Of a stretch of 64,000 bases of DNA, positions 7,501 through 64,000 are shown one piece after another. The stretch comes from an uncultured SAR116 cluster alpha proteobacterium. GTDB taxonomy: Bacteria; Pseudomonadota; Alphaproteobacteria; Puniceispirillales; GCA-002684695. The notes below the pieces were generated by a model, which did not search any database, was not told the DNA's origin, and saw only the letters and a list, made by a program, of their open reading frames with translations. Within the stretch, counting starts at the first letter, position 1; each line of letters opens with the position of its first letter. A program made the translations under genes and the position numbers. The stretch spans positions 5,092-69,091 of the forward strand of contig CABYVI010000003.1 of the NCBI GenBank assembly GCA_902522415.1, written 5' to 3'.

Positions 7501-10500
7501 ATCTGATGATATGACCGATCTAGCAAAGAAAATTAATGAGCACTCTGCAAATACTGGAGTGACAGCATTTTTATCAGTTGATAAGAAAAAAGTGGTTCTT
7601 GAGAGTAAAGACGGTGACGATATAATGATGACAAATTTTTCATCATCAAGTCCACCACTTAATTTAAAATCACTAGGAGAAAACTTTGAAACTCTTGGTA
7701 ATGAGGTAAAATTAGATAATACTAACTTTGATGCAGCAAGATTTACTGGCTATGTTAAATTGAATGCTGGAGGATCATTTTCTTTAACAACAAACGCTGG
7801 TTCAAATAACTCAACAGTCTCTAGTACAACTGATATTTTTGAAAATAGCTTTATAGAAAAAAGCATGACACCAACTGGCGAGCAAATGACTCTAAAATTT
7901 GATGCATTTGAGGGTGCTGATGGAAATGGATCTTCAGTTGACGGTTCTATGGCTCTTGCTGCAGGTGGCGAGTATAAATTGACAATTCCTAATACTGGTT
8001 CAGGGACCTCATTCTCATCTACAGTCAAAACTAAAGATTTAGAAAGTATCACATCAAATACTGTCGCTGCAGAAATAGCAAAAAAATTACGCTCTGATAC
8101 ACTCATAGCTTCGGTATCAGGTAAAAGTTCAGTAAATGAATTACCTGAAGCAGGAGACAAGTTAGTTGTAAAATTTGCAGAGCAAAATTATACACTTACA
8201 ATGCTTGATAATGGACGTGATGCAGTGCCTGCAACTGCTACGTTAAGTGTAAGCAACGCAGATACAGTTGCAGCTGCAGGAAACCGAATTCATCTAATTT
8301 TATCAGCCGGCATGGAACCAGAAATTGATTTGGATTACACTGTTCAGGCAGGTCAAACTAATATTTCAAGTATAGTTTCAGGACTTAACACTGCTCTAAA
8401 TACTGCAGGAGCTTCTGATAAATACTCATTTTCATTCAGAGGAACCAATTTAATTTTATCTAGAAAGGATGGAGTTAATTTTCAATCATACAAGGGTGCA
8501 AATCAAACAACAAATATACTATTTTTTGATGGTGTTGATATTAGAACTGGAGCTGGTAGAGAGACTATTAATGGCGCAACAACAAATAAAACGCTAATCA
8601 CAACAGATGGGAAACTTTCTGTTGAGAGAGAAATTGAAATATCTGGTGGTGAAAAGAATAGGCTTAATGCTTATTTTGATGAAAATAAAAAGTTACAAAT
8701 TTTTGCTGGTGGGAGTCTTTCTGGACAGCAAATAATAATTCCTGATGATAACTCTGTTTCAGGTAATAGTAGTGCTGCCACTAGATTTGGAATAGATCGA
8801 GCAATAGGAACATTAACAGGAAATGAGATTGCAGTCCCTGCAACAACTTCGACTACGAATGTTAAAGTAGGTGATATTGATTATACTTTAACCATTAATC
8901 CAAATAATGGTGGTAAAGTAACTGCAGAATTAAAAGATGGAAATAATATTGTTCCAACTAACATATTACTCGATGCAACTGTAAACTGGATGAGCAATAT
9001 TATTACTTCAGATACAACGAGTATTGCATCTTCAGCTGGTGCAGTTATCACTTCTGATAGTGATCACGAATTTAAGGTTGGAGACAAAGTAAAATACTTT
9101 AAAGGAGGCACTGCACTTACTGGGTTAACACATAATACTGAATATACAGTTGCATCCATTGTAAAAAAATCTAGCTCTCAAGCTAATACGGTTGGCCTCA
9201 CGCGAGCTGCTAGTTCCACAATAACAACTGCTAATGCTCACGAGTTTAAGGTTGGAGACTTTGTAAAATACGTAAAAGGCGGGACGAATAACCTTCAAAG
9301 TCTGACTGATGGGGAGGTTTATAAAATAAAAGAGGTTGTTGGCACCAATCAATTTAAACTTCAAACAGCTGGTGGCAGTGACTTCACTTACGGTGGAACT
9401 GGTGGTAGTTCAGCAGATGCATTCATCCGATTTGACGGCTTTTCGTTAAAAAGTGCAGCAGGTGCAACCATTACTTACGGTGGTGGAAACGGCCACGCAG
9501 CTGATCAGTTTGTAAAATCAGAAAATATTAGAACCGCTGATACAACAGGGCAAACGAACAATACATCTGCAACAATAACAGTTGGTGAGGGTCACGGATT
9601 TAAAGTAGGAGATTCTGTGACTTATATTCCAGCGGGAACAAGCGTTCAAGGATTAGGGGCAAATATCAACTATAGAGTAAAAGCTCTTATTGGCTCAACT
9701 GGAATTTCGCTACAGACAACAGCAGGCGCTGATTTTGCTTACTTGGGAACAGATGGAAGTGCAAATGATGTTTTTGTAAAGGCTAACGGAAGAATATCAA
9801 TAAAGACCAATCCATATAGTAATAAGGAATATAAATTTGATCATACTGCTAACGCTGAGGCTCTAGGTATTAAAGTATCGGACTACAGAGTTAATGTTGA
9901 CAATGATAAATTAGTAATTGCATCCACTGAAGGAAAAGTTGTTTCTGCTGATACAACAGGAAGCAACACAAGCGTTAAAAGCTTAATTGGAAGCAATATT
10001 AATATTAAAAATGTTGGCAATGAGGATTTAATAATGATTGTCAATGGCGGTGGCGCAAGAAGTGTCGCAACAAGGTCTGACCCCCCTGCCCCAAATTATG
10101 AAGCAAAACCTTCAAACATTGACATCAAAGTTGCAAACGCTGAGGGTAGTGTTATCGAATTCCTTGATGCAACCACGGGTCATTCAATCGCTACAAGAAC
10201 ATTAGACACTGTAGGTAGAGCTGAAGCTGCTGGTTATAAAGTTGTTGTCAAAGGTAAAGGCCAGCTCGATGACAGTTTTAAAATATCAGACAATGCTGGT
10301 GGAACAGGTGACGCAAGAAACTTAGATGCCATGATAATGCTTCAAACTGAAGATGCAAATGGTCCTAATTCAGGTGGGTTCAGAGAAGTTTTTGACAATA
10401 TTGTCACAGGTGTAGGAGCATCAGTATTATCAGGCGGTCTATCTTTAGAGGCAGCTGAAGCAACAAAAGAAGCGGCAATTGCATCAGAACTAGAATTTTC

Positions 10501-10621
10501 TGGTGTGAGTTTGGACACTGAAGCTGCACAGCTTCTGGAGCAACAACAAGCATTTCAAGCTTCTGCAAGAATTCTATCAACTGCTAAACAACTATTTCAA
10601 ACATTACTAGACGTAGTGTAG
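4541..10621 (+). CDS. flgK: Giant hook-filament junction protein FlgK (HAP1), 2026 aa
   Basis: N-terminus SSLFDIGKSAVQSYRQALAVTGQNIANVNTDGYKRR and C-terminus EAAQLLEQQQAFQASARILSTAKQLFQTLLDV are FlgK-type. The ~1500-aa central region contains flagellin-IN-like motifs and five HGF-x-x-GD modules. Confidence 0.85.
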   Translation: MSSLFDIGKSAVQSYRQALAVTGQNIANVNTDGYKRREADLKEVGASSGSVTSTGNSAGLGVRVENIRRSFDQFLLDRSRSSIANYEKLKSYTDQMKQLEDILLPGDADIGSYIGRFFGALQDIAANPGDLAPRTVALEEGKSLAGAFRNLSFQLEEMQKNGKSQADDTCSAINIVVTQLVDVNERLLSSSLGSSPNSTLDLRDRLLEELSKLTDISVSYNERKDVTVTIGKTGAGPKLLSGKIATKIGVADTGGVIQVLMGAGTSNTPTNQVTGGVLGGVIDSYALIGDTNRDIDNLAVLISETLNDQHKQGITLDGKEGENIFVTSGMTVSPGRANRSSVSAEIVISDIEKLPKGQLTAKFNEVQNRWTLSGSSLENNIFGTSEIKGPGFSLNILGKPTDGDELSTTPLTGAASGMQFMLRRAQDFAAASKTLVSATVSNKGTADITASTGKIKTSDNPPLLNNVFTNSNSPLTATNFLSDGAVSAIPTGSQEADILSFKTQSQMSFQLTEAEIPTTTSLTLEVNSVPHVFDLTYSSVYPKAVASEKWKSCGEIATALNRGIIKNSNSQTLSDLGLFASGSGGSITFASSENDFSGQSTISSGGGTILGISKASALPSNVQVFTREGRHLAGTPLTKEDIAKLVTIDNGFNEGASYRADYINLSGDKAYRGLSLERKTATGDHVITLGSNSNSVTANTSGIGSSIGATITTGTNHGFSTGDTVQYLANSTALTGLTDKAVYKVASINGTNQFTLTKTDGTTLTYGGSNGHANDSFKLFNVNSSGIIPSKTIFPSSAVSAYNASISMFGGESGNIDIPAGSSAGFSANKINTDLANLGVQAEAITRVELSMAEIGSLSYGQTRVNQGSGSPAISLSSTSTNGAATGETEFKVGDIIKYEAVDDHATNGGPLQGLTEFAEYMVASVSSNSITLKNTDGTSLTYGNTGGATGVASHFDSFTLVRRTGQVTLDFESKNQDAINISATISSDDMTDLAKKINEHSANTGVTAFLSVDKKKVVLESKDGDDIMMTNFSSSSPPLNLKSLGENFETLGNEVKLDNTNFDAARFTGYVKLNAGGSFSLTTNAGSNNSTVSSTTDIFENSFIEKSMTPTGEQMTLKFDAFEGADGNGSSVDGSMALAAGGEYKLTIPNTGSGTSFSSTVKTKDLESITSNTVAAEIAKKLRSDTLIASVSGKSSVNELPEAGDKLVVKFAEQNYTLTMLDNGRDAVPATATLSVSNADTVAAAGNRIHLILSAGMEPEIDLDYTVQAGQTNISSIVSGLNTALNTAGASDKYSFSFRGTNLILSRKDGVNFQSYKGANQTTNILFFDGVDIRTGAGRETINGATTNKTLITTDGKLSVEREIEISGGEKNRLNAYFDENKKLQIFAGGSLSGQQIIIPDDNSVSGNSSAATRFGIDRAIGTLTGNEIAVPATTSTTNVKVGDIDYTLTINPNNGGKVTAELKDGNNIVPTNILLDATVNWMSNIITSDTTSIASSAGAVITSDSDHEFKVGDKVKYFKGGTALTGLTHNTEYTVASIVKKSSSQANTVGLTRAASSTITTANAHEFKVGDFVKYVKGGTNNLQSLTDGEVYKIKEVVGTNQFKLQTAGGSDFTYGGTGGSSADAFIRFDGFSLKSAAGATITYGGGNGHAADQFVKSENIRTADTTGQTNNTSATITVGEGHGFKVGDSVTYIPAGTSVQGLGANINYRVKALIGSTGISLQTTAGADFAYLGTDGSANDVFVKANGRISIKTNPYSNKEYKFDHTANAEALGIKVSDYRVNVDNDKLVIASTEGKVVSADTTGSNTSVKSLIGSNINIKNVGNEDLIMIVNGGGARSVATRSDPPAPNYEAKPSNIDIKVANAEGSVIEFLDATTGHSIATRTLDTVGRAEAAGYKVVVKGKGQLDDSFKISDNAGGTGDARNLDAMIMLQTEDANGPNSGGFREVFDNIVTGVGASVLSGGLSLEAAEATKEAAIASELEFSGVSLDTEAAQLLEQQQAFQASARILSTAKQLFQTLLDVV

Positions 10622-10630
10622 GAGGAATAA

Positions 10631-11917
10631 ATGCAAGTAAGTACAAAATTATTCAATCAACAATCAGTTAATCAGTTCGGAAAACTGACCAGTGAAATTC
10701 AAGATCTTCAGGCAAAGGTTTCAACTGGGAAAAGTATTTTAAAATCTTCAGATGATCCAGTTGCAGCAGTTGAGTTATCTGCAGCCAAAGAGCAAAAAAA
10801 TATTTTGGAAAGGTTCAGAAGGAATATTGACTCTGCTCAAAGAAGATTAGATTTATCCGATGGTTCTATGCAGCAAGCAATCAACGTTATGACAAGAATT
10901 TCAGAATTAGCTATTCAAGCTGCCAACGACACAAATGGCGTTCCTGAGAGAATTGCCATTAGAACTGAAGTAGAGCAACTCGCAAATGTAATGCTTGAAA
11001 TAGCAAATACTAGAGATGCTCAAGGACAAAGTTTATTTGCTGGATACCACACTAATACTCAAGCTTTCATCAAAAACGTTGACGGAACATTCACTTATAA
11101 TGGAGATCGAGGGAAACACACTCTTCAGATTTCTGAATCAATGAACGTTGCAACAAGTATTGATGGAGGCACAGCTTTTGAAACAGTAGACACAGGTTCT
11201 GGCAGAAAAAGTGTTTTTGATATTATTACAAATATTGTAAACACAATTAACAATGCAGATGCTTTATCTAGCCAAGGATCTGCACGTGCGATGGCGTCAA
11301 TAGATTTCAAAGTACCCAGAGATCCTCAAAATTGGTCTTTTGTTTTAACAGGTGGATTAGGATCTTCAACTGTAGACATAACAGTTTCTGATGGAAACTA
11401 CGATGATACAGTTACTAAAATTAATGCGCTTACTTCAGTAACTGGCGTAAAAGCAAGTTTAGACAATGACACAGGCAGAATAACTTTAACGGATAGCCAA
11501 AGTCGAACTATAAAAATTTCTAATATTGAAATTGAGGGAACTGATTTTGCGACTGGAGAGATAAATAGTTATATTGATTTTAATACTCTTGAGGGATCTG
11601 GCGCAGAAGTTGGTTCTTCTCGAAGGTTGACTGATACAAATCAATTAATATCAAGTTCAGTTGAGGATGTAAAAAAGGCAACAGATCATCTGAGTTTACA
11701 AAGATCATTTTTGGGCGCTCAGCTTAATAAAGCTGAACTTCAAAAAGATTCTATTGACCAAAGGATCATGGCAACATCTGAAAGAGTTTCTGATCTTGGA
11801 GACGCAGACTTAGCTGCAATCGTTACTCAAATTCAGAGTTTGTTGATTAACAGAGATGCTGCTCAACAAGCATATGCAAAAATAAGTCAAAACAGCCTGT
11901 TTGATTTCCTAAAATAG
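10631..11917 (+). CDS. flgL: Hook-filament junction protein FlgL (HAP3)
   Basis: 428 aa; flagellin-like N-terminus (SSDDPVAAVE...RISELAIQAANDT) and C-terminal helix; follows flgK. Confidence 0.8.
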   Translation: MQVSTKLFNQQSVNQFGKLTSEIQDLQAKVSTGKSILKSSDDPVAAVELSAAKEQKNILERFRRNIDSAQRRLDLSDGSMQQAINVMTRISELAIQAANDTNGVPERIAIRTEVEQLANVMLEIANTRDAQGQSLFAGYHTNTQAFIKNVDGTFTYNGDRGKHTLQISESMNVATSIDGGTAFETVDTGSGRKSVFDIITNIVNTINNADALSSQGSARAMASIDFKVPRDPQNWSFVLTGGLGSSTVDITVSDGNYDDTVTKINALTSVTGVKASLDNDTGRITLTDSQSRTIKISNIEIEGTDFATGEINSYIDFNTLEGSGAEVGSSRRLTDTNQLISSSVEDVKKATDHLSLQRSFLGAQLNKAELQKDSIDQRIMATSERVSDLGDADLAAIVTQIQSLLINRDAAQQAYAKISQNSLFDFLK

Positions 11918-11934
11918 TAAAATTAAAAAAGTGT

Positions 11935-11960
11935 TAAACATTTTTTTATATTGACGTTTA
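11935..11960 (+). promoter_or_regulatory. Sigma-28-like promoter of flagellin 1 (TAAA-N14-GACGTTTA)
   Basis: TAAACATTTTT...GACGTTTA. The same TAAACATTTTT box and the same 14-nt spacing occur at 14335-14360 before flagellin 2. Resembles TAAA-N15-GCCGATAA. Confidence 0.45.
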
Positions 11961-11967
11961 TAAATAA

Positions 11968-12024
11968 TGAAGTGGTCAGCGCCCTTCAAAAAATTAATAT
12001 TATTTAGTCAATGAAGGGATAGTT
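11968..12024 (+). promoter_or_regulatory. Flagellin 1 leader: hairpin with GGTCAGCG loop plus alternative RBS-sequestering pairing
   Basis: TGAAG-TGGTCAGCGCC-CTTCA hairpin. CCCTTCA can instead pair with the RBS repeat TGAAGGG at 12012-12018. Confidence 0.5.
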
Positions 12025-13527
12025 ATGACTTCCATCAATAGTGACCAAATGTCTGCAATGGTTCTCGCGAGCCTTAATAAGTCTAATGCAACTATGCAAG
12101 AATCTATGCAAAGGTTATCTACAGGTAAAAGAATTAACCATGCAGGTGACGATGCTGCTGGTCTGTCTATCTCAGCAAAACTCAGAGCGCAGGTTGATAG
12201 TTTAAATGCAGCAATTAAAAATTCATCAGATGCATTGGCAATGGTGAGTACGATTGAAGGTGCACTCGTTGAAACTACGACTATACTCCAAAGAATGAGA
12301 CAATTATCTGTTCAGTCTTCCTCTGATACCAACACAGGAAATGACAGAACTTATCTTCAAGACGAAGTAAATCAATTAATTACTGAAATTAATAGAATTT
12401 CTACTAATACAGAATTTAACTCAACAAAACTTTTAGACGGAACTTTTACTGATAAAAATATTCAAATAGGAACAGCATCTAATCAAGTTTTAAGACTAGG
12501 TGTAAGTGCTACAGATTCTACAAAATTAGGAGCATATCAACTAGATAGTGTGGATGAGAGTATTGCTCCAGAAGATACTCATGCATCTGCTAAAACTGTT
12601 TTAAATGCTTTGTATGATGCCACAGCAGATTACGTTGTTAAAGGTACTTTTGGCACGTTTACAGCTTCAGTTGATGCTGGAGCTGATGCAAGAGATGTTG
12701 CTTCATCTTTTAATTTAATAGGAGGGAATACAGGCGTTAACGCGACAGCACTTACTCGTGCGAAAATGACCGTTTCTGCAGCAGCAACATTCAGTTTTAC
12801 ATTTGAGGGTAAAAGTACAACAACTTCTCAAATAACAGCTACTGTAACTTCTGCGACTGACTTGACTGCAATAAAAGATGCTATTAATGCAGTATCGGGT
12901 TCTACAGGTATTTCAGCTGCTTTGACATCTGATAAATCTGGGGTAGAAATTACACAAGCAGAGGGATACGATATTATTATCGGTGATGTATCAACTGGTT
13001 CAACTGACGCTAACTTACTAGTTACGGCCATGGATATGGATGGAAACCTTGATACAGGAAATACGAGAACATTAGATGGTGACGGAACAACTGGTGACTC
13101 AACAGCGATTGTTGGTACAGTTCGCCTTTCAAGTCAAAACGCTTATACGGTTTCGCCAGGTCATGCGAATAATCACTTTTCTGCTGCTACTACAGAATTG
13201 ACTGCATCACATAGTACAATTTCAGCAGTTTCTCTTACAACAAAGGAAGGTGCGACAAAAGCTATGTCAGTTATTGATGGTGCTTTGTTAATGATATCAG
13301 GTATTAGATCAAATATGGGTTCAGCTAACAATAGACTACAATCTACTATCGATAATCTAAGTAATATTGCAGTGAACGCTCAAAAATCACTTTCAACAAT
13401 AGAAGATGCTAACTTTGCTGAAGAAACTGCAAAACTTACAAAAGCACAAATACTTGCGAAAGCAGCTACATCTATGCTTGCTCAAGCGAATAAAGCAAAA
13501 GAAACAATGCTTGCATTGCTGCAATAA
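12025..13527 (+). CDS. fliC: Flagellin (500 aa)
   Basis: RLSTGKRINHAGDDAAGLSIS N-terminus, NRLQSTIDNL...AQANKAKETMLALLQ C-terminus; central flagellin-IN-like motif DLTAIKDAINAVSGSTGISAAL. Confidence 0.95.
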   Translation: MTSINSDQMSAMVLASLNKSNATMQESMQRLSTGKRINHAGDDAAGLSISAKLRAQVDSLNAAIKNSSDALAMVSTIEGALVETTTILQRMRQLSVQSSSDTNTGNDRTYLQDEVNQLITEINRISTNTEFNSTKLLDGTFTDKNIQIGTASNQVLRLGVSATDSTKLGAYQLDSVDESIAPEDTHASAKTVLNALYDATADYVVKGTFGTFTASVDAGADARDVASSFNLIGGNTGVNATALTRAKMTVSAAATFSFTFEGKSTTTSQITATVTSATDLTAIKDAINAVSGSTGISAALTSDKSGVEITQAEGYDIIIGDVSTGSTDANLLVTAMDMDGNLDTGNTRTLDGDGTTGDSTAIVGTVRLSSQNAYTVSPGHANNHFSAATTELTASHSTISAVSLTTKEGATKAMSVIDGALLMISGIRSNMGSANNRLQSTIDNLSNIAVNAQKSLSTIEDANFAEETAKLTKAQILAKAATSMLAQANKAKETMLALLQ

Positions 13528-13557
13528 AAATTTAATTGTTCATATAAGAATTTTTAT

Positions 13558-14100
13558 TTATTTATCAGATGGCTTCAAAGATATAGCATCAAAAATTGTA
13601 AATTCTTCAGTAGCCAGATCTCTTAAAAAATCAATATCTTTCTCGTCGTCAATTTTCCATCCACTGGGTGACGGTTTGCTTAAATCAGATCTCAGTGAAT
13701 ACATATAAGACTTAAACATTTTTATAATGCCTCTTTCTTCGTAATTACGATCTCTTTCTCCATCAAAAATTGATCCAAGAAGCGGTTTGCGATTTCTGAT
13801 TTTACCATTATCAAAGTTAATCGTATTATATATGAAACCGTCTAGGTACTTAGTTGCATCTGAACCCGCCTCTACTTCTGCTAATATCCTAATTATATCT
13901 TCTGCAATTGATGAGATCTCAATTGGATTGACTTCGTCATATTTTTCTAAAAGAGCTTTAGAATATCTTCTTGCCACTAAGTCGATGGGTATATCCTTGA
14001 CAAGAAAATCTCTAGCTGTAAGACCAATACAAGCTGCGTAAACCCATTGAGGGCAATATACAGCCATTTTACCTCCACTAGATAATAAGTTTGATAACAT
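13558..14100 (-). CDS. Hypothetical protein (180 aa) on the opposite strand inside the flagellin array
   Basis: Intact ORF, convergent with flagellin 1; no recognisable motif. Confidence 0.4.
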   Translation of the reverse strand: MLSNLLSSGGKMAVYCPQWVYAACIGLTARDFLVKDIPIDLVARRYSKALLEKYDEVNPIEISSIAEDIIRILAEVEAGSDATKYLDGFIYNTINFDNGKIRNRKPLLGSIFDGERDRNYEERGIIKMFKSYMYSLRSDLSKPSPSGWKIDDEKDIDFLRDLATEEFTIFDAISLKPSDK

Positions 14101-14334
14101 AATAATACACTTCGTTTAAAAATTATAGAACAAAGTAACTATTGCAAATTATATGCCCAAACAGTCACTTTTTCTAAATAAAGCTGAAAAGAAAAAAACA
14201 TTTAACTCTACATTATTATTTAGGCAATTTTAAACAAAATTTTTGTGAAAAAACCCATAATAAACGACACAAAAAAAATTTGTTTAGAAATAAAAAAAAA
14301 TAATAAAATCAATAACTTTTTACTAAAAATAAAC

Positions 14335-14360
14335 TAAACATTTTTACTATATGCCGTTCA
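14335..14360 (+). promoter_or_regulatory. Sigma-28-like promoter of flagellin 2 (TAAA-N14-GCCGTTCA)
   Basis: TAAACATTTTT...GCCGTTCA, same architecture as 11935-11960. Confidence 0.5.
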
Positions 14361-14370
14361 TTTACTTGTA

Positions 14371-14434
14371 CGGAGGTGGTCAGCGAAAACCTTCTCCGCG
14401 TTTAAATTTAATTAACTCGGAAAGGAGACAAAAA
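14371..14434 (+). promoter_or_regulatory. Flagellin 2 leader: hairpin with GGTCAGCGAAAA loop and anti-SD arm
   Basis: CGGAGGT-GGTCAGCGAAAA-CCTTCTCCG. The 3' arm CCTTCTCCG is also complementary to the RBS region CGGAAAGGAG at 14418-14427. Confidence 0.5.
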
Positions 14435-15952
14435 ATGGTCTCAGTGAATACTAATATTGCGTCAGTTGACGCTAGAAACACATTAATGGGTAATAATGTA
14501 ACGATGGAAAAAGCATTCGAAAGACTTTCAAGTGGAAAGAGAATTAACAGCTCAAGTGATGATGCTGCGGGTCTTCAAATTGCAAATAGCCTAACATCTC
14601 AAATTAATGGTCTAAAAATGGCAGCAAAAAATGCTGGTGATGGTATTTCATTAGTAAATACAGTTGATGGAGCTTTAAGCGAAGCAACTGACATTTTACA
14701 AAGAATGCGTGAACTTGCTGTTCAATCTTCTTCAGATACAAATGCTGGACAAGATAGAGTTTTTATCCAAGAAGAAATAAACGCACTTAATACAGAACTT
14801 AATAGAATTTCATCTACCACTCAATTTAATGGGGTGAACGTTCTTGATGGCACATTCGGTGATGTATCACTTCAGGTAGGTTATGATCCAAGCCAAACTG
14901 TTAATATGAGTGTTACTTCTTCAGACTCTGCAACATTAGGTGCATACCAGGATACATCAACAGTCGAAACATTGGCCGTAGTTGATACATATGCATTAGC
15001 AACCGCAGGTTTAACGACAACTATTGCTGACGCAGGTGATTACACAGTTTCAGGTTTTTTTGGTTCTGATACAGCATATATCGCAGCTGAGGCAGGGGCA
15101 AGAGACACAGCTGCAGCTTTCAACTTAATTGCAGGTAATACTGGCATTACAGCAACTGCAGAAACCAGAGCAAGACTTACTGTAAGTGCTGCCGCAACAT
15201 TAACTTTTGACCTTTATGGCAAAAGTTCAACTAAGTCTTCAGTGACAGCAGTTATTTCTGACACATCTGATTTATCAAACTTGAAGGATGCCATTAACGC
15301 AGTCAGTGGATCCACTGGGATTTCCGCAACTCTTACATCTGATAAAGCAGGCGTCAATATAGTTAATCCAGAGGGTTATACGATATTTTTTGCTGATGTG
15401 ACAGCTGCTGGCGGTACTGATGCAGATCTACAGGTTGCAAATTTAACTGTCGACGCTGCTGGTGCTGAAACAACAGCTAACCAAGTTGCAATGAAAGGTG
15501 ATGCAGCTACTGATGATAGTACATATGTATTAGGTCAAGTTACATTGTCTTCAGATAAAGCATTTGCTTTAAGTTCTGGAAATGCTGCAAACCATTTTGC
15601 AACAGATACTTCAGTTCAAACTAGTGCGTTGAGCCAACTAGGCGATATTAACCTTAAAAATATCCATGGTGCTCAAAAAGCTTTAGCGATAATTGATAAA
15701 GCCATTAATATGATCGATACAACACGTTCAACAATGGGTGCTTTAAATAATCGTCTTGAAAGTACTATTAACAATCTGAATAATATTCAGGTAAAAACGG
15801 AAGCGTCTCTTTCCAGAGTAATGGATGCTGATTATGCAGAAGAGACAACTTCCTTATCTAAATCTCAAGTCTTAACTCAGGCAGCTACTGCTATGCTAGC
15901 GCAAGCAAACCAAGCTCCTCAAGGAGTATTAAGATTACTTCAGGCAGGATAA
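14435..15952 (+). CDS. fliC: Flagellin (505 aa; true start MVSVNTN, not the ORF-track ATG at 14351)
   Basis: AAAGGAGA RBS 7 nt before ATG 14435; RLSSGKRINSSSDDAAGLQIA ... AQANQAPQGVLRLLQ. Confidence 0.93.
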   Translation: MVSVNTNIASVDARNTLMGNNVTMEKAFERLSSGKRINSSSDDAAGLQIANSLTSQINGLKMAAKNAGDGISLVNTVDGALSEATDILQRMRELAVQSSSDTNAGQDRVFIQEEINALNTELNRISSTTQFNGVNVLDGTFGDVSLQVGYDPSQTVNMSVTSSDSATLGAYQDTSTVETLAVVDTYALATAGLTTTIADAGDYTVSGFFGSDTAYIAAEAGARDTAAAFNLIAGNTGITATAETRARLTVSAAATLTFDLYGKSSTKSSVTAVISDTSDLSNLKDAINAVSGSTGISATLTSDKAGVNIVNPEGYTIFFADVTAAGGTDADLQVANLTVDAAGAETTANQVAMKGDAATDDSTYVLGQVTLSSDKAFALSSGNAANHFATDTSVQTSALSQLGDINLKNIHGAQKALAIIDKAINMIDTTRSTMGALNNRLESTINNLNNIQVKTEASLSRVMDADYAEETTSLSKSQVLTQAATAMLAQANQAPQGVLRLLQAG

Positions 15953-16004
15953 AGGCCGCCATTGGATTTGAGAAACTAATGGTAGTTTAGTCTACCTACT
16001 ACGG

Positions 16005-16048
16005 AGCCCCAATTTAGAAATGACCGTCTAAGTTGGGGCTAAAAAAAA
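16005..16048 (+). other. 14-bp hairpin (loop AATGACCG) followed by an A8 run, in the flagellin 2/3 intergenic region
   Basis: AGCCCCAATTTAGA-AATGACCG-TCTAAGTTGGGGCT, one G.U pair; no U-run, so not a canonical terminator. Confidence 0.5.
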
Positions 16049-16084
16049 CTCAAGATGAAAGTCTTGAACAACAAGGAGATAAAT

Positions 16085-17587
16085 ATGACCTCAATAAATA
16101 GTGACTTCATGTCGCAATTGGCTTTAAGAAGCCTCGGACAATCGTCCAATACAATGACCCAAGCAATGGAGCGTTTATCAACAGGAAAAAGAATTAATTC
16201 TGCTGCTGATGATGCTGCTGGACTTGGTATTGCTACTAAGCTAAGAGCACAAGTAAATAGTTTAGAGGCTGCTGGAAGGAATGCTTCTGACGCTTTAGCA
16301 CTTATCGGTACAATTGATGGTGCATTAGAAGAGTCAGGTGAAATTCTTCAAAGAATGCGTGAATTGGCAGTTCAATCTGCATCAGATACAAATACTGGTA
16401 CAGATAGAACTTTCATTCAAGATGAAATAAATCAACTCTCTCAAGAGTTAAACAGAATTTCTACAGCAACTGAGTTTAACAATGTGAAATTGCTTGACGG
16501 TACATACACTGATAAAGCAATTCAAATTGGTACAGGTGCAAACCAAGTATTCAGATTGGGAGTTTCTGCGACAGATGCTTCAACACTAGGTGCGTATCAA
16601 TTATCTTCAACAACAGAATCTATGGATCCAGCTGCTGAAGATACTCACGCATCTGCAATTACAGCATTTGCAGCATTATTTCATGCAGACGCAGATTATA
16701 CAGTTAAGGGTAGCTTTGGAACTGCAACTGCTTCTGTAGCTGCTGGTGCTGATGCTCGTGATGTGGCTAGAACATTCAATTTGCTCTCAGGTACAACAGG
16801 TATTAATGCAACTGTCACAACCAAAGCACAGCTTAAAGTTACTGCTGCCGAGACTTTTAGTTTTACACTTCAGGGTAAAAGTTCAGATAAATCTACAGTT
16901 AATGCAACTATAACTAGTATAAGTGATTTGACAGCTTTGAAAGACGCTGTAAATGCTGTTTCAGGACAAACTGGAATTGTTGCTTCATTAACTGAAGACT
17001 TATCAGGAGTTAATCTTACACAAGAAGAAGGTTACAATATTGTTGTAGGTGACGCGACTGCAGCTTCTGGAGCGATGACAGTCCAAGAAATGAAATCAGA
17101 TGGAACTGTAACAGGTTCAGCAAGAACATTAGACGCAGATGCAACAGCTGCAGACTCTACAGCAGTTGTAGGGCAAGTCACTTTGTCTAGCCATAAGGCC
17201 TTCACTGTAACTTCTGGAAATGCTGCTAACCATTTTGCTACTGATACAGCCGCACAAAACTCAAGTTTATCTACAGTAGGCAGCCTTAGCCTTAAAACTC
17301 AAGCTGGTGCAACATCTGCTATTGCAGTTCTTGACGGAGCAATGGCTCAAATTTCTGAAATCCGAGCAGAAATGGGTGCAGCTGAAAACAGACTAGAGTC
17401 TACAGTTGATAACATCAGTAACGTTGCTGTAAATGTTCAAAGATCTCTATCTTCAGTTGAAGATGCGAATTTTGCTGCTGAGACATCCCAGTTAACTAAG
17501 TCTCAGATACTTCAGCAAGCAGCTACTTCAATGCTTGCACAAGCAAATAAAGCAAAGCAAACAATGCTTGTACTACTTCAAGGTTAA
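16085..17587 (+). CDS. fliC: Flagellin (500 aa; start MTSINSD)
   Basis: AAGGAGA RBS before ATG 16085; close paralogue of flagellin 1 throughout, including the central domain. Confidence 0.93.
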   Translation: MTSINSDFMSQLALRSLGQSSNTMTQAMERLSTGKRINSAADDAAGLGIATKLRAQVNSLEAAGRNASDALALIGTIDGALEESGEILQRMRELAVQSASDTNTGTDRTFIQDEINQLSQELNRISTATEFNNVKLLDGTYTDKAIQIGTGANQVFRLGVSATDASTLGAYQLSSTTESMDPAAEDTHASAITAFAALFHADADYTVKGSFGTATASVAAGADARDVARTFNLLSGTTGINATVTTKAQLKVTAAETFSFTLQGKSSDKSTVNATITSISDLTALKDAVNAVSGQTGIVASLTEDLSGVNLTQEEGYNIVVGDATAASGAMTVQEMKSDGTVTGSARTLDADATAADSTAVVGQVTLSSHKAFTVTSGNAANHFATDTAAQNSSLSTVGSLSLKTQAGATSAIAVLDGAMAQISEIRAEMGAAENRLESTVDNISNVAVNVQRSLSSVEDANFAAETSQLTKSQILQQAATSMLAQANKAKQTMLVLLQG

Positions 17588-58352: not shown

Positions 58353-58549
58353 AAATTTTTTTTTAAATCTTCTGGCGGAGGAACCATCCGCCTCACCTCA
58401 CCGCATAACGGTTGATTTGCTTCAATTCTAGCATTTTGGGATTTTTCAGTCCACAATTTAGTCTACAATATTTAATATCTTAAGATTAACTTTAAAGAAT
58501 AAGTTGATTTTAAATTATCATTTAAAGATATTGTGTTGTAGAGTTATTT

Positions 58550-58984: not shown

Positions 58985-59506
58985 TTAAATTGGGTTTACT
59001 GTTATAGAGTATTCCTTCAAAACCTTCTTGATTTGAGGAATACCTTTTTCATCAAATTGAATGGAGTTTAATCTCTTTAGATACCAGATGGATAATGCTG
59101 TGGCTTCTGCTGTGCATCGTGTTTTAACTATGCCACTGCCATCAAAGTCTTCAAAGACACATTCTTCATCACGATATTTTATCCAATCTCTCTGAACGTT
59201 TCTTATTCTCTTTTTCTGCTTGGGAAACACAGCGTATCTTTCCATCACATCTTTATAAATTCTATTGAGTTCTGAATCCATTGAAACATTAATTCTATGG
59301 GCACAGACAACTCCATCACCTGTTTTTGGAGCAACACCTCTTTTAAACATAACATTACATTCAGGGTGCTTTTCATTGGTCATGTCCATAACCATTCTGG
59401 TTATTTCACCATCTGATACTTTGGCATTTGTCTGGTAGGAAAAGAATAGTGAGAAAATTAAGAGTGCTGGGAAATAAATTGAATATTCTTTGATTTTACT
59501 GAGCAT
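58985..59506 (-). CDS. Secreted DUF1311/LprI-like (lysozyme-inhibitor-like) protein
   Basis: Signal peptide; LNRIYKDVMERY ... VQRDWIKYRDEEC pattern. Confidence 0.6.
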   Translation of the reverse strand: MLSKIKEYSIYFPALLIFSLFFSYQTNAKVSDGEITRMVMDMTNEKHPECNVMFKRGVAPKTGDGVVCAHRINVSMDSELNRIYKDVMERYAVFPKQKKRIRNVQRDWIKYRDEECVFEDFDGSGIVKTRCTAEATALSIWYLKRLNSIQFDEKGIPQIKKVLKEYSITVNPI

Positions 59507-59665: not shown

Positions 59666-60208
59666 TTGAGAATGAAGAAGTATTATTTAATATTGTTTAT
59701 TGTTTTTGGCTTCGTATTAAACTCGTCATATGCCTCTGAAAAAATAACTGAAATTAACTTTAATGACGGAGCAAATTATTATGAATCCCAAGCAATAGCT
59801 AAGGGTTTAAATAAAGAAATTATTTATGCATTTCATACTTGGCTTGAAGTAAGTCATTTTAATTATGGATGCTTATCAGAAGATAATTGCAGACAAAACA
59901 TTAAGTATGAAATGAGTTTTGAAACATATTCAGCAGACTTAAATTCAGATGGAGTTGATGAAGTATTTGTATATTTGAAAGGACCGGGAATATGTGGTTC
60001 TGGAGGGTGTACTACATACATTCTTCAAAAAAAAAGTGAAGATAAATGGATGATAATTGGGGAATATTTTCCAAATTATGGAACAAGTATTTCTTCAAAA
60101 AAACATGAAGGTTTTTCAATTATTTATCATAAAGGGAAATTTGGAAAATATGAGTGTTTTTATCAAGCATGGGAAAAAAATTTATATAGCTGTTATGAAA
60201 AAAAATAA
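59666..60208 (+). CDS. Secreted Cys-containing hypothetical protein
   Basis: Signal peptide; DLNSDGVDEVFVYLKGPGICGSGGCTTYIL. Confidence 0.5.
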   Translation: MRMKKYYLILFIVFGFVLNSSYASEKITEINFNDGANYYESQAIAKGLNKEIIYAFHTWLEVSHFNYGCLSEDNCRQNIKYEMSFETYSADLNSDGVDEVFVYLKGPGICGSGGCTTYILQKKSEDKWMIIGEYFPNYGTSISSKKHEGFSIIYHKGKFGKYECFYQAWEKNLYSCYEKK

Positions 60209-60339: not shown

Positions 60340-61215
60340 ATGATGGAATTATTAATAGTAATTGCTGGAATTATTGGACTTGTCTGGTTTTTTAACAGAG
60401 ACACATCAGACAAAAATATAGACTATACTCCACCCAGAAATAGATCTTCATCAAAAATATTTAAATATAAAGAGTTCTCTAAAAAGTCAAAGCCAAAAAT
60501 TAAATTTAATAACTCGAATCATAAAATAAAAACTGAAAATAGTAAAATTATTAAATGCAAAAGCTGCCAACAAAAACTTAGAGTAGGAAAAATTCCAGCT
60601 GGGAAAAGTGGGGTTGTTACTTGCCCATCTTGCAACTTTAAAAATAAGATTACAGTTAAAAAAAATAAAACAACAGAAAATATTTTAAATTTTGACGGCA
60701 TTAATGATGCTTATACTGGAATACCAATTAATCCCTCAAAACAACTATATAACTGCGGTTGCGGCGTTTTTTATCACGCTGAAAGTTATGAGGTTATTGT
60801 TCAAGAAAATTTTTCACAATGTGTTGCTTGTTCTAAAACAAATATATCAGCTTTTCATTCAAAAGAAGATGTTTCAATCAATATCTCTACTCCAAGAAAC
60901 CACAAAGCTAGTGTTATAACTCTAGTCAATTATAGAAATTATTTAAATAAGGTTGTTACATTTGAAGGAGAGGTAAAAAAGATTTTACAAAGCAGATCAG
61001 GAACAAGTTATGCCGTTATGTTTGAAAATAAAGGTTGGACAAAAGGTTTCAAACTAGTATTTTTTAGGGATGCAGTAAGCCAATATGGAGGCTCTAGATA
61101 TATTTATTCATTAGAAAGAAAAAAGTTAAAAGTTAGAGGTTTATTAATTAAACATAAAACTTTTGGATATGAGATTATAATAAATGAAAAATCAATGATC
61201 ATGAGTGTAGAATAA
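60340..61215 (+). CDS. Membrane-anchored protein with two Cys4 zinc-ribbon-like motifs and a C-terminal OB-fold-like domain; first gene of the Ubl operon
   Basis: N-terminal TM segment; CKSCQQKLRV...VTCPSCNF; CGC...CVAC; VVTFEGEVKKIL...YAVMFEN...LKVRGLL. Confidence 0.6.
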   Translation: MMELLIVIAGIIGLVWFFNRDTSDKNIDYTPPRNRSSSKIFKYKEFSKKSKPKIKFNNSNHKIKTENSKIIKCKSCQQKLRVGKIPAGKSGVVTCPSCNFKNKITVKKNKTTENILNFDGINDAYTGIPINPSKQLYNCGCGVFYHAESYEVIVQENFSQCVACSKTNISAFHSKEDVSINISTPRNHKASVITLVNYRNYLNKVVTFEGEVKKILQSRSGTSYAVMFENKGWTKGFKLVFFRDAVSQYGGSRYIYSLERKKLKVRGLLIKHKTFGYEIIINEKSMIMSVE

Positions 61216-61416
61216 ATGAAATGGAAAAACATAGATTTAAAGAATAAAAAAACAACTAAATATTCTGATGAAGTTTCAGTAGATTATCCTAAAACTAAAG
61301 AAGATTATCATAAGAGTGTAAAAAAATATCACCCCGATATAAATGACCCTTTTTTCAAAAATCGTAATACAAAAAAAATGCAAAAGTTAAATCAAAATAA
61401 AGACAAGTTAAAATAA
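61216..61416 (+). CDS. Mini J-domain-like protein (66 aa) with an HPD motif
   Basis: EDYHKSVKKYHPDIN; abuts both neighbouring genes with no gap. Confidence 0.45.
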   Translation: MKWKNIDLKNKKTTKYSDEVSVDYPKTKEDYHKSVKKYHPDINDPFFKNRNTKKMQKLNQNKDKLK

Positions 61417-62556
61417 GTGGAAAAATTCGCTCGAATATCAGCAATCAATGGATATGATAGAGATTTTATTTCTTCAATAAAAATAATTGTTATAGGCGCT
61501 GGTGCCATAGGAAATGAGATAGTAAAAAATCTTGCTCTTTTTGGTGTTAAAGAAATATTAATTTTTGATTTTGATAAAATTGAGATTCATAATCTTACAA
61601 GAAGTATTTTCTTCAGGGAAGAAGATATAGGAAGATTTAAAGCTGAAACAGTTGCTAAAAGAGCTTCAACTGTTTCTCCAGAAACAAATATAATAGCTAT
61701 TAATGAAAACTTTTGGGATTACTTAACATTTGAAATGTTATCACAATATTCAGCTGTAATATGTGCTGTGGATAATTTTGAAGCGAGAATTCGTTTAAAT
61801 ACATTATGTTCATTTTCAAAAAAACTATTTATAAATACTGGCATTGACCATACATTTGGTGCTGTTGAAGCTTTCCCCTTTGATCAAAATATTAATAACA
61901 CTGTAGCATGTTATGAATGTGGAATACCTTCTTCTGTTTATCTTAGAATGTCAGAAAGATATTCTTGTGGGTGGATTAGAAAAAAATACTTAAAAGAAAA
62001 GGTTATACCAACAACCACAATCACCTCTAGTATTACCTCTGCACATGCAATTTCAGTTTTATTTGAATATTTAAATCCAGACCTCCAAATTGAAGGTTTT
62101 GATTATTCTAAATCAGTAAAAAAACTAATCAATACAAAAACCCTTTCAGTGTCAATAACTGATATCCCCATAAAAGAACTATGTCCTTCCACATTTCATA
62201 ATACTCAAGATACAGTATTCTCAAAATCAAAAAGAAATATGAATAATCTGTTCTCTCAAAATCAAAGTTTAATTGACGCTTCTCAAAACATTAATATTGA
62301 GTTTAGTGAACCCATAATTTTATACACCAAAGAAAAGGATGGTTCTAAAAAATATTTCTTTGATAGAGCTGAAAATTACGATGAAACAATATTAATAAAA
62401 AATGGAGTTCGCTCTTTAGATGCAAAAATTATACAAAATATAAATTTCAAAACATTAATAGATGAATATAATAAATATGAAATACCTTCTAAGTTCATAC
62501 TTTGTAATTTAGATAATTATAAAAAAGCAATTATTGTGGAGATGATAAATGAGTGA
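61417..62556 (+). CDS. E1-like ubiquitin-activating enzyme (ThiF/MoeB/HesA fold); GTG start
   Basis: IIVIGAGAIGNEIVKNLALFGVKEILIFDFDKIEIHNLTRSIFF, CAVDNFEAR, CYECG. Confidence 0.85.
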   Translation: MEKFARISAINGYDRDFISSIKIIVIGAGAIGNEIVKNLALFGVKEILIFDFDKIEIHNLTRSIFFREEDIGRFKAETVAKRASTVSPETNIIAINENFWDYLTFEMLSQYSAVICAVDNFEARIRLNTLCSFSKKLFINTGIDHTFGAVEAFPFDQNINNTVACYECGIPSSVYLRMSERYSCGWIRKKYLKEKVIPTTTITSSITSAHAISVLFEYLNPDLQIEGFDYSKSVKKLINTKTLSVSITDIPIKELCPSTFHNTQDTVFSKSKRNMNNLFSQNQSLIDASQNINIEFSEPIILYTKEKDGSKKYFFDRAENYDETILIKNGVRSLDAKIIQNINFKTLIDEYNKYEIPSKFILCNLDNYKKAIIVEMINE

Positions 62557-62845
62557 TGATATTATAGAAATTGATCAAGGTGGAGATAACAATATTTCTG
62601 TTATTTTAAGAACAGCTGATCAAACAAGAAAAGCTGAAGTAGAGGTTTCAAAAGAAGACTTAATTAGTGAAATAATTGCGAGTGCAATAGAAAATTGGCA
62701 ACTAGATAAAGAAGTTGATTATTCAATTTCAAATGTTACGCAAAGCATTTCTTTAGATCCAGACCAAACCATTGGTGGAACAAATACCAGCAATGGGGAT
62801 ACTTTAGAAATTCAACCTGTATTGGTTGCTGGTTATGGGTGGTAG
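62549..62845 (+). CDS. Ubiquitin-like (beta-grasp) protein, 98 aa, C-terminus ...LVAGYGW
   Basis: Right size and position between E1 and E2; C-terminal GDTLEIQPVLVAG resembles a Ubl tail; overlaps both neighbours. Confidence 0.6.
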   Translation: MSDDIIEIDQGGDNNISVILRTADQTRKAEVEVSKEDLISEIIASAIENWQLDKEVDYSISNVTQSISLDPDQTIGGTNTSNGDTLEIQPVLVAGYGW

Positions 62846-63455
62846 AGCATCAAGAATAGAAAATGATTTAAAAAAAGTAAAAGAACTTTGCCTAAAGAGC
62901 AATGGGGCTATCAATATTATATCTCAAAATAATGAAGAAATTGAATTAGAATTTAAATATAGAACGATTGAAAATTCATCTGGGAAAATAATTAATAAAT
63001 CGATTGTTGAAATTGAGTTTGGACCTAAATACCCTTTTATTGAGCCCAAAGCATTTTTTAAATCTGAAATTTTTCATCCCAATGTTTATACTTCAGGACA
63101 AATATGTTTCGGGATAAAATGGGTTGGTTCACAAACATTAGATTTTTTGGTTGAAAGAATTGCAAATATAATAATATTTGACTCAAACATTCTTAACCTA
63201 GATTCTCCAGCTAATTCAACTGCTGTTAATTGGTATAAAAAAACAATTAGAAACAACCCAGATATTTTTCCTACTGATACATTTGTAAAACAGACACAAA
63301 CTAAAAAAAGCACTATAAAATGGAAAAATGTGAGTAACAACAATTTTGTTGTCAAAAATTGCCCGAGTTGTAATCAAGCATTAAGGTTGCCCACTGGAAA
63401 AAAACTCAAGGTAACATGTCGAAAATGTAAACAGATTTTTGAGACAAAGACATAA
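62835..63455 (+). CDS. E2-like ubiquitin-conjugating enzyme with a C-terminal zinc ribbon (the ORF track starts at TTG 62826)
   Basis: UBC active-site signature FHPNVYTSGQICFG; C-terminal CPSCNQALRL...VTCRKCKQIF. Confidence 0.8.
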   Translation: MGGRASRIENDLKKVKELCLKSNGAINIISQNNEEIELEFKYRTIENSSGKIINKSIVEIEFGPKYPFIEPKAFFKSEIFHPNVYTSGQICFGIKWVGSQTLDFLVERIANIIIFDSNILNLDSPANSTAVNWYKKTIRNNPDIFPTDTFVKQTQTKKSTIKWKNVSNNNFVVKNCPSCNQALRLPTGKKLKVTCRKCKQIFETKT

Positions 63456-63457
63456 TA

Positions 63458-64000
63458 ATGAAGTGGAATTCAGTAAAGCCGGATATTAAAATACACAGTC
63501 TTCATTCTGTTATAAATGAAATTGGCTTTATGTATGGAATCGCATTTATTAATACCAATGAAAATTACCTATTACTATGTTTTCAGAGTTGTTGGGATAA
63601 AATCATCAAACATCTCAAACCACATAAAGTGGAGATGGGTGGATTAATAATTGGCAAAATACATGAAGATCAAAGTTTAGATAAAACAATTGTTCTTTTG
63701 GAGGATATTGTTGTTTCAAATGATCACAAAAGTACATCTGTTTCTCTTGAAATGGGTGCAGGTATTTGGTCAGAAGCCAATAGCAATAAAAATAATGACC
63801 AAGCAGTTGTAGGTTGGTATCACTCTCATCCAAATCTAGGAGCATTTTTTAGTGGTACCGATGTCAAAAATCAAAAAGCTAATTTTAATTCCGCTTTTCA
63901 TTTTGGCTTAGTCATAGACCCTTTTAGAGATGAGTATGCGATATTTAGAGGCGCAGAATCAAAACCTATTAATTTATCAAACTTTTTTATTGGAGACAAT
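63458..64000 (+). CDS. JAB/JAMM (MPN+) metalloisopeptidase, 3' end beyond the window
   Basis: My own translation of an open frame running to nt 64000: ...KVEMGGLIIGK...VVGWYHSHPNLGAFFSGTDV... (E, HxH, S..D JAMM residues). Confidence 0.85.
   Translation, partial: MKWNSVKPDIKIHSLHSVINEIGFMYGIAFINTNENYLLLCFQSCWDKIIKHLKPHKVEMGGLIIGKIHEDQSLDKTIVLLEDIVVSNDHKSTSVSLEMGAGIWSEANSNKNNDQAVVGWYHSHPNLGAFFSGTDVKNQKANFNSAFHFGLVIDPFRDEYAIFRGAESKPINLSNFFIGDN

Follow-up and report, generated by a model that had tools for sequence, protein, structure and literature searches.

The 64,000-nucleotide stretch of DNA analysed here, referred to below as the window, comes from an uncultured SAR116 cluster alphaproteobacterium (assembly GCA_902522415.1, contig CABYVI010000003.1, positions 5,092 to 69,091) and ends in a set of six genes for conjugation of a ubiquitin-like protein (Ubl). 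All six are encoded on the plus strand, in the order membrane E3-like protein, J-protein, E1, Ubl, E2 and JAB peptidase. The E3-like protein of 291 amino acids (60340..61215, stop codon TAA at 61213-61215) is followed by a putative mini J-domain protein of 66 amino acids (61216..61416, start ATG at 61216 and stop TAA at 61414-61416). Next comes an E1 of 379 amino acids with a GTG start (61417..62556), which is composed of a ThiF-type adenylation domain (Pfam ThiF, 3.7e-40) and an unassigned C-terminal region of about 135 amino acids. The Ubl (62549..62845, 98 amino acids) shows weak matches to Rad60-SLD and TUG-UBL1, and the E2 (62826 or 62835..63455; Pfam UQ_con, 1e-11) consists of a UBC core, a tail and a C-terminal zinc ribbon. 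The last gene, for a JAB/JAMM deubiquitinase-type peptidase (63458..64000; Pfam Prok-JAB, 2.3e-11, and JAB, 1.2e-9), is cut by the window end. We consider it rather probable that the locus is a mobile, probably antiviral six-gene Ubl-conjugation operon in which a membrane-tethered E3 works with a DnaK-recruiting J-protein.

The six open reading frames (ORFs) are tightly packed: those for the 291-amino-acid protein, the 66-amino-acid protein and E1 abut, the Ubl start overlaps the E1 stop, and the E2 start overlaps the Ubl stop. A preliminary description of this DNA, made from the sequence alone, had pointed out both abutting junctions and proposed a single six-gene operon. The coordinates and motifs were all found, and the proposal is borne out by a gene order seen again in dozens of genomes and metagenomes that are unrelated, which is more than chance would produce. 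We found no terminator-like sites on the plus strand inside the operon, which is weak evidence in AT-rich DNA, and a promoter scan was uninformative in the same AT-rich DNA (31 sites against 27 expected).

The 291-amino-acid protein has 195 homologues in a collection of 5.8 billion proteins. Scanning one genome per species with this protein yielded 26 loci in about nine phyla (Alpha-, Beta- and Gammaproteobacteria, Bacteroidota, Nitrospirota, Verrucomicrobiota, Chloroflexota, Desulfobacterota and Omnitrophota), and in 25 of them E1, Ubl, E2 and JAB lie directly downstream of the homologue in the same order. The converse survey was a metagenome scan seeded with E2 alone; it gave 42 loci that extend 500 bp or more beyond the E1 start, and a homologue of the 291-amino-acid protein is encoded directly upstream of E1 in 41 of these. 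A short ORF between that homologue and E1 is present in 23 of the 26 genome loci and 25 of the 42 E2-seeded loci. The gene-neighborhood survey that the preliminary description had suggested thus showed that both genes travel with E1, Ubl, E2 and JAB, the J-like ORF in most loci; the two extra genes are conserved core members of a six-gene operon. No seventh conserved gene was found on either side of the operon across the loci, so the unit ends with these genes.

We conducted domain analysis of the 291-amino-acid protein using an AlphaFold model built on 118 homologues, which has a predicted local distance difference test score (pLDDT) of 85.4. No Pfam family scored above threshold for this protein or for its 118 relatives. 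In the model, residues 2-19 (60343..60396) form a transmembrane-type helix (Kyte-Doolittle 17-mer score of 2.46), and a comparable N-terminal hydrophobic helix occurs in 104 of the 118 family members, in agreement with the membrane anchor described earlier. The helix is the only hydrophobic segment of the protein; the basic residues that follow it and the cytosolic partners suggest an N-out/C-in orientation. It is followed by a disordered linker (60397..60543, pLDDT 46-60), which is rich in lysine and serine in the window copy and rich in serine, proline and arginine, not lysine, in most homologues. The linker carries an I-x-F motif (KIKF, I54/F56), of which F56 is invariant and I54 nearly so across the family. 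The folded part of the protein begins with a zinc ribbon (ribbon 1; CKSC...CPSC with C73, C76, C95 and C98; 60544..60651), modelled as four strands over residues 69-104, continues with a second cysteine-rich domain, and ends in a beta-barrel with pLDDT above 95 (residues 188-291, 60901..61212).

The second cysteine-rich domain spans residues 121-171 with a central helix in the AlphaFold model, and we describe it as a RING/U-box-like domain with one zinc site (60700..60852), made up of D123-A-Y-T-G127, the residues C139, C141, Y145 and H146, a helix at 147-156, and C161 and C164. Residues D123, G127, C139, C141, Y145, S149, C161 and C164 are invariant in the family alignment, and the domain follows the pattern D-A-[FY]-T-G-x-P-[LI], then a two-cysteine hairpin and a helix, and at the end C-V-x-C. 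We take this pattern to be that of a RING fold which lacks zinc site 1, as in U-box and SP-RING domains, and keeps site 2. In the mapping onto the U-box consensus that we assume, D123, T126 and G127 stand where the ligands of zinc site 1 would be, and F/Y125 presumably retains the hydrophobic side chain with which such domains usually contact E2.

Residues 110-182 were modelled separately (AlphaFold domain pLDDT 83.5), and the top 50 Foldseek matches in the PDB are almost exclusively RING and U-box E3 domains, among them TRAF6, Legionella LubX U-box 2, Pirh2, TRIM21, TRIM69, RNF38, the CHIP U-box, RING1B, RNF4 and Rbx2. The probabilities of these matches range from about 0.35 to 0.97 and are mostly 0.7-0.97, the template modelling (TM) score is about 0.5, and the root mean square deviation is mostly about 2-3.5 Å over 54-58 columns, with a few poor-fit exceptions. 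An independent Foldseek search of the BFVD viral library likewise returned almost only RING/U-box proteins, and the best probabilities in the two libraries reach 0.97-1.0. The domain is modelled with a cross-brace-type beta-beta-alpha fold. With its single zinc site it differs both from a canonical RING, which has eight zinc ligands, and from a canonical U-box, which has none and relies on a hydrogen-bond network, and it represents an intermediate state comparable to SP-RING. Sequence profiles give weak zf-RING_4 matches in 4 of 118 members and weak Prok-RING_1 matches in 2 of 142, both distant ones (best E-value 2.5e-4, below the cut-off). When the RING-like domain was searched against PDB sequence profiles, the matches were to ribbons and did not exceed chance level.

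The domain occurs in several other contexts. In a distant, high-G+C clade of the operon (loci L060, L062, L065, L069, L071, L072, L076, L080-L082, L088, L090, L096, L097, L103 and L106) the operon has five genes and an E2 that is 30-35% identical; the upstream protein consists of a membrane helix, a conserved [FYW]RP motif and the RING-like domain only, with no OB fold, and no J gene is present. Since the RING-like domain is the only part common to this clade, which lacks both OB and J, it is the conserved core. In other settings the domain either stands alone or is joined to TPR, SH3, Ig-like, BON or peptidoglycan-binding modules; we observed it at the N-terminus of larger proteins with TPR (P0189, P0257), with SH3 and Ig-like/Big_5 (P0190, P0205) and with BON (P0250). 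The combination of a constant RING with a varied binding module is typical of E3 ligases and supports the same assignment here. Judging from the modelled fold, the 291-amino-acid membrane protein is probably the E3 of the system. The preliminary description had offered sensor, conjugation target or effector as its role; with a RING/U-box-like core, E3 ligase now leads.

The C-terminal domain resembles, by Foldseek, the N-terminal anticodon-binding OB domains of the class IIb enzymes AspRS, AsnRS and LysRS (E-values 4e-5 to 4e-4, probability 1.0). Pfam tRNA_anti-codon (PF01336) matches 17 of the 118 members below threshold (best E-value 0.0065), and one NCBI homologue is annotated as "OB-fold nucleic acid binding". 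The modelled C-terminus is a five-stranded OB barrel that resembles the tRNA-anticodon type, as the earlier label "OB-like" had anticipated. That label formed part of the description "double zinc-ribbon/OB-like protein", of which the first ribbon and the OB fold stand; the second ribbon is, according to the model and the Foldseek searches of two libraries, the one-zinc RING/U-box-like domain instead. The same description had noted a ribbon signature common to the 291-amino-acid protein and E2 and had taken it as a sign of a common ligand or mutual recognition. The similarity is there, as ribbon 1 and the E2 tail ribbon are identical at 13 of 26 residues (pairwise E-value 7e-6). Ribbon 1 is found in only 16 of the 118 family members, all in the marine subclade of the window, and in most other operons a similar ribbon is present on the E2 tail only. 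It therefore cannot be the general recognition basis in the system, and we ruled it out in that role; it looks like a subclade-specific insertion, acquired locally.

Several members of the family depart from the common arrangement. Extra or tandem E3-like copies are present in two loci (L005:3-1220 and L033:2-4405); the former, from Methylobacteriaceae, has two E3-like copies and no J gene. A locus from Anaerolineaceae (L016:9779-11205) retains the E3-like gene, a J ORF lengthened by additional sequence, and a fragment of JAB; it lacks E1, Ubl and E2 and so looks like a decayed copy. A plasmid search returned only a stand-alone RING-like mini-protein of 70 amino acids, composed of the I-x-F motif and the RING/U-box-like domain (L108:6962-7174; Vibrio coralliilyticus plasmid NZ_CP024629.1, 111993-112205). 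It is 54% identical to a Pseudomonas homologue and is present on three near-identical 180-kb Vibrio plasmids, where it is surrounded by many small hypothetical genes as well as genes for a cytosine methyltransferase and a PAPS-reductase-family protein; neither E1 nor E2 is encoded in the vicinity. As a speculation, it could be a decoy or an anti-defence protein.

The short ORF between the E3-like gene and E1 was analysed together with its positional orthologues. In its usual form the protein has 79-84 amino acids and the N-terminus MKW(K/R)N, and full-length orthologues score 46-52 bits against Pfam DnaJ (PF00226), whose gathering threshold is 27.8 bits. An alignment of 19 orthologues shows no variation at HPD, W3 or F46. 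As far as sequence profiles can tell, the small ORF is a member of a true J-domain family, and the J-domain identity of the window copy rests on orthology. The window ORF has W3, the HPD motif (H39-P40-D41), which in a J-domain lies in the loop between helices II and III, and D44-P-F46-F. Together with its marine low-G+C relatives it represents a shorter form of 64-68 amino acids; about 14 residues including helix I (PYExLGV) are deleted in the copies from the window, L001 and L002 relative to the orthologues. The deletion accounts for sub-threshold scores of 16-22 bits (22.4 and 16.1 bits in close short-form relatives). The short form with an open frame, W3, YHPD and DPFF is kept in relatives that are 48-51% identical (L001, L002, L028-L031), and its intactness at about 50% identity argues that it is expressed and under purifying selection.

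The J gene is linked to the architecture of the E3-like protein. It was found in 49 of the 50 loci whose E3-like gene has an OB domain; both are present in 49 loci, neither in 12, and OB without J only in the Methylobacteriaceae locus with two E3-like copies. The short J form, in turn, is found together with the additional ribbon of the E3-like protein, which suggests co-adaptation. A further link is seen in short motifs. The J-protein N-terminus conforms to M-[KR]-W-[KRTN]-[NDEK] in 41 of 48 cases, and a loose pattern detects a similar motif just before the ribbon in 30 of the 44 E2 tails from the J clade, against 5% of shuffled tails. The KIKF (I-x-F) of the E3-like linker resembles both. 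In the window, motifs resembling [IM]-[KS]-[WF]-x-[ND]-[IVL] are seen in three disordered tails, namely the J N-terminus (61216-61236), TIKWKNV in E2 (63315-63335) and KIKFNNS in the linker (60496-60516). All three might serve as peptides that dock to one shared site.

The closest solved relatives of E1 are the active adenylation domains of eukaryotic Uba1, UBA7 and UBA6 in the PDB, and its conserved residues include the nucleotide-binding glycines G27xGAxG32, D119, C165xxC168, C184 and C256. The Ubl ends in the motif LE[VI]QPVLVAG, which is strictly conserved across loci and followed by 0-7 residues; in the window it reads LEIQPVLVAG95 with the extension YGW (62831-62845). A conserved glycine with 0-7 extra residues points to C-terminal processing as described for Bil, by analogy with which the window Ubl would probably need processing by JAB before activation. 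The E2 active site is of the eukaryote type and consists of an invariant (H/N)PN motif and Cys94 (H84-P-N86 and C94 in the window), and the best solved relatives of the E2 family profile are eukaryotic UBE2A/Rad6, UBE2L3 and UBE2L6. Its tail carries the motif TIKW166KNV and then the C-terminal zinc ribbon (C179...C201); the ATG at 62835 is likely to be the true start. An "SPA" motif of E2, considered as a RING-binding loop, was rejected in that role: its counterpart in UbcH5 is a later loop, of the NPxDP type. In JAB the full JAMM motif is intact (E59, H122xH124, S132 and D135).

The distribution of the operon suggests that it is mobile. The E3-like family is rare, as a profile of the RING-like domain finds 326 clusters among 1.84 billion representatives; its members include culturable Pseudomonas, Vibrio, Photobacterium, Cupriavidus and Dyella strains. 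In nearly all loci the G+C content of the operon is lower than that of its flanks (in Pseudomonas, for instance, 0.42 compared with 0.55, and in a genome of Lysobacteraceae 0.50 compared with 0.66), and this, together with the patchy distribution, indicates horizontal transfer. A search of a phage database gave no match, and IMG/VR contains a single contig with the operon, which is prophage-like (L107, IMGVR_UViG_2521172724_000002, 5573-16328). There the complete six-gene operon lies within a P22-like prophage, with a P22-type portal gene and umuC upstream, and is followed by genes for a BsuBI/PstI restriction enzyme and an Eco57I-type methylase. The Photobacterium copy of the operon is encoded between a large serine recombinase and genes for a phospholipase D (PLD) nuclease and a KAP-NTPase. 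These neighbors, in a few loci, resemble a defence-island or prophage-accessory context, and this genomic context suggests a role in antiviral defence.

These components allow us to propose how the system could work. By analogy with Bil, JAB would trim the tail of Ubl, which would then, given the conserved motifs, be adenylated by E1 and passed to the E2 cysteine. The modelled RING/U-box-like domain would bind E2~Ubl at the cytoplasmic face of the inner membrane and promote transfer, while the OB domain would select the target or ligand, possibly a nucleic acid, a protein or a peptide. The J-protein could dock through its N-terminal MKW(K/R)N peptide and switch on DnaK/Hsp70 at the complex. 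DnaK might then present non-native or phage proteins for tagging, as Hsp70 does with CHIP, or it might remodel and activate the ligase complex.

A number of observations weigh against the proposal of a membrane-tethered E3 with a DnaK-recruiting partner in a defence operon. The Foldseek E-values of the RING-like domain are weak (0.01-0.6 for a 55-residue domain), which is expected for a domain so small; in sequence-profile searches the window protein matches no RING, U-box, SP-RING or Prok-RING family, and its four invariant cysteines make one zinc site where a canonical RING needs eight ligands. The E2-E3 and J-OB contacts are putative only, and the co-occurrence of OB fold and J gene may go back to one divergence of two clades. 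Only a few loci provide the context behind the defence role; neither PADLOC nor NCBIfam contains a model that matches the E3-like protein, the J-protein, Ubl or E2, and in one distant clade the operon is located beside a housekeeping gene. The window J-protein itself is a weak point. The preliminary description had called it an HPD mini J-domain that would recruit DnaK/Hsp70, and had named a failure of J-domain profile significance as one refuting outcome; the family bears this out with its high-scoring orthologues and invariant HPD, while the window ORF alone scores 17.4 bits (E-value 0.0047), below the Pfam cut-off. Without helix I its J-domain helical bundle is incomplete and possibly functionally impaired. 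One could argue from this score, from the deletion of about 14 residues and from the low-complexity, lysine-rich composition that the ORF is a decayed J remnant, whether translated or not, unable to work with DnaK for want of helix I. We regard this as rather unlikely, as relatives at 48-51% identity keep the short form with motifs and frame intact, which indicates purifying selection, translational coupling is seen on both sides of the ORF, and the co-occurrence of the short form with the extra ribbon suggests co-adaptation.

Other explanations concern the role of the 291-amino-acid protein and of the operon as a whole. The protein could be a substrate or effector that receives Ubl on its lysine-rich linker or its OB domain and, once modified, oligomerises or perturbs the membrane, leading to abortive infection under control of assembly by J and DnaK. 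Membrane effectors are common in defence systems, and the membrane anchor, the long disordered lysine-rich linker of the window copy and the tight coupling of the protein to the cascade would suit such a role; the single N-terminal helix with no further hydrophobic segment, and a linker that is Ser/Pro/Arg-rich in most homologues, would not. As the invariant part has a RING/U-box-like fold, which is also found with TPR, SH3 and Ig-like partners, an adaptor or ligase fits better than a pore, and we consider the effector role improbable. We judge equally improbable a membrane sensor whose cysteine-rich domain and OB fold bind incoming phage DNA, phage RNA or tRNA and merely switch on the cascade, with E2 conjugating without an E3, as described for the E1 and E2 of Bil. 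The likeness of the OB fold to anticodon-binding domains and the single nucleic-acid-binding annotation favor a sensor of this kind, but the distant clade has the cysteine-rich domain and no OB fold, so that the core role cannot lie in nucleic-acid binding through OB, and the structural neighbors of that domain are E3 domains, not nucleic-acid-binding ribbons. Sensing also overlaps with the E3 model, in which OB is the recognition module. Somewhat less remote, and still doubtful, is the idea that the operon is not antiviral and instead serves membrane-proximal quality control or regulatory tagging of host proteins with DnaK. A J-domain implies chaperone involvement, no defence-database model matches, and a threonine-aldolase-type gene adjoins the operon in four loci of a distant clade. 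Against this stand the patchy occurrence across about nine phyla with G+C below the flanks, the prophage copy next to restriction-modification genes, the copy with recombinase, PLD-nuclease and KAP-NTPase neighbors, and the antiviral function of the related Bil operons.

Upstream of the operon the window encodes an LprI-type secreted protein of the lysozyme-inhibitor family (58985-59506, minus strand) and a cysteine-rich secreted protein of 180 amino acids without a Pfam match (59666-60208, plus strand); neither gene is conserved beside the operon in other loci. Further upstream, at 58360-58460, the AT-rich intergenic DNA downstream of a methyltransferase gene contains a G+C-rich patch with the hairpin GGCGGA-GGAACCA-TCCGCC. 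Neither this patch nor any other part of the window gave a match when scanned for tRNAs and Rfam families.

The operon is a variant of the bacterial ubiquitin-like conjugation operons. Bil (Type I and II; BilABCD) is likewise a mobile operon in which E1, E2, Ubl and JAB are encoded separately, and its Ubl too has a conserved glycine followed by a few residues that a JAB peptidase would remove; Bil operons are antiviral. The described Bil and Bub operons comprise four or five genes, without J-domain, OB-fold or membrane components. Bil in particular has four genes with no E3, J-domain or membrane protein, whereas the window operon has two more conserved genes; the preliminary description was right that neither of these belongs to the described Bil systems. 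The PADLOC models for BilA, BilB and BilC do not match the window E2, Ubl and JAB, and E1 has a weak partial match to BilD (9e-8), being 379 amino acids long against 453 positions in the BilD profile. The window E2, unlike that of Bil, is a member of Pfam UQ_con with an HPN motif. The nearest relatives of the window E1 and E2 are eukaryotic, namely Uba1 and Rad6/UBE2L3 respectively, rather than the enzymes of Bil, Bub or CBASS (the cyclic oligonucleotide-based antiphage signalling system), and, given also that the PADLOC models miss E2, Ubl and JAB, the operon is by sequence not a Bil system with add-ons. Bub and CBASS Cap2/Cap3 are similar in that E1/E2-type conjugation in bacteria is linked to defence. 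Bub uses serine (oxyester) E1/E2 intermediates and a DUF6527 (6E) peptidase, while the window operon has a cysteine E2 (invariant Cys94, HPN) and a JAB peptidase; Cap2 of CBASS is an E2-E1 fusion, while the window operon encodes the two as separate genes. We know of no demonstrated E3 and no chaperone link in the characterised CBASS Cap2, Bil or Bub systems.

The archaeon Caldiarchaeum subterraneum has an operon for ubiquitin, E1, E2, a small soluble RING E3 and an Rpn11-type JAB. Compared by description, it is similar to the window operon in combining five functional classes in one operon with eukaryote-like E1 and E2, and differs in having no membrane anchor, OB fold or J-domain gene. Mobile bacterial operons with E1, E2, JAB, Ubl and a predicted RING-type E3 were reportedly described by Burroughs, Iyer and Aravind in Mol Biosyst in 2011, and their E2s are said to carry the eukaryote-type oxyanion-hole residue. 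According to the descriptions in citing papers, the gene content of these operons (E1, E2, Ubl, JAB and a RING-like protein) would be similar to that of the window operon. One review, in its paraphrase of that work, attributes to bacterial RINGs two of the four ligand pairs, the central-hairpin pair and the C-terminal pair, and in that paraphrase the layout corresponds to the ligands of the window domain; the window protein, on the other hand, matches none of the Pfam models Prok-RING_1, Prok-RING_2 and Prok-RING_4. In the accessible literature, a scope that leaves out the papers of Burroughs and colleagues from 2011 and 2012, which may catalogue the five-gene core or the J gene, we came across no bacterial E1/E2/JAB operon with a J-domain or OB-fold protein joined to it, no experiments on an operon of this type, and nothing that connects J-domains with Ubl conjugation in bacteria.

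Work on ubiquitin-like conjugation in bacteria is still young. The operon offers the most eukaryote-like E1/E2 pair that we saw in bacteria, together with a candidate E3 with a swappable recognition module and a dedicated J-protein. In this compact six-gene cassette, two questions would become directly testable, namely how bacterial ubiquitination chooses its targets and whether the partnership of Hsp70 and ubiquitin is older than the eukaryotes. A more far-reaching and tentative idea, to which we give a low probability, is that the system is a bacterial counterpart of chaperone-assisted ubiquitination, in which the one-zinc membrane E3 and the J-protein/DnaK pair would tag phage or non-native proteins bound by Hsp70 with Ubl at the inner membrane. 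If true, it would be the first prokaryotic system joining a full cascade of E1, E2, E3 and deubiquitinase to Hsp70, and it could be an antecedent of the triage logic of eukaryotic Hsp70 and CHIP. CHIP is comparable as a RING-fold ligase coupled to the Hsp70 system, as is proposed for the window operon, and its U-box is among the Foldseek matches. Its coupling to Hsp70 is through a TPR domain, while that of the window operon would be through a separate J-protein. The CHIP, SP-RING and U-box comparators are, moreover, eukaryotic and soluble, whereas the window protein is membrane-anchored and shares the fold without membership of these families at the sequence level.

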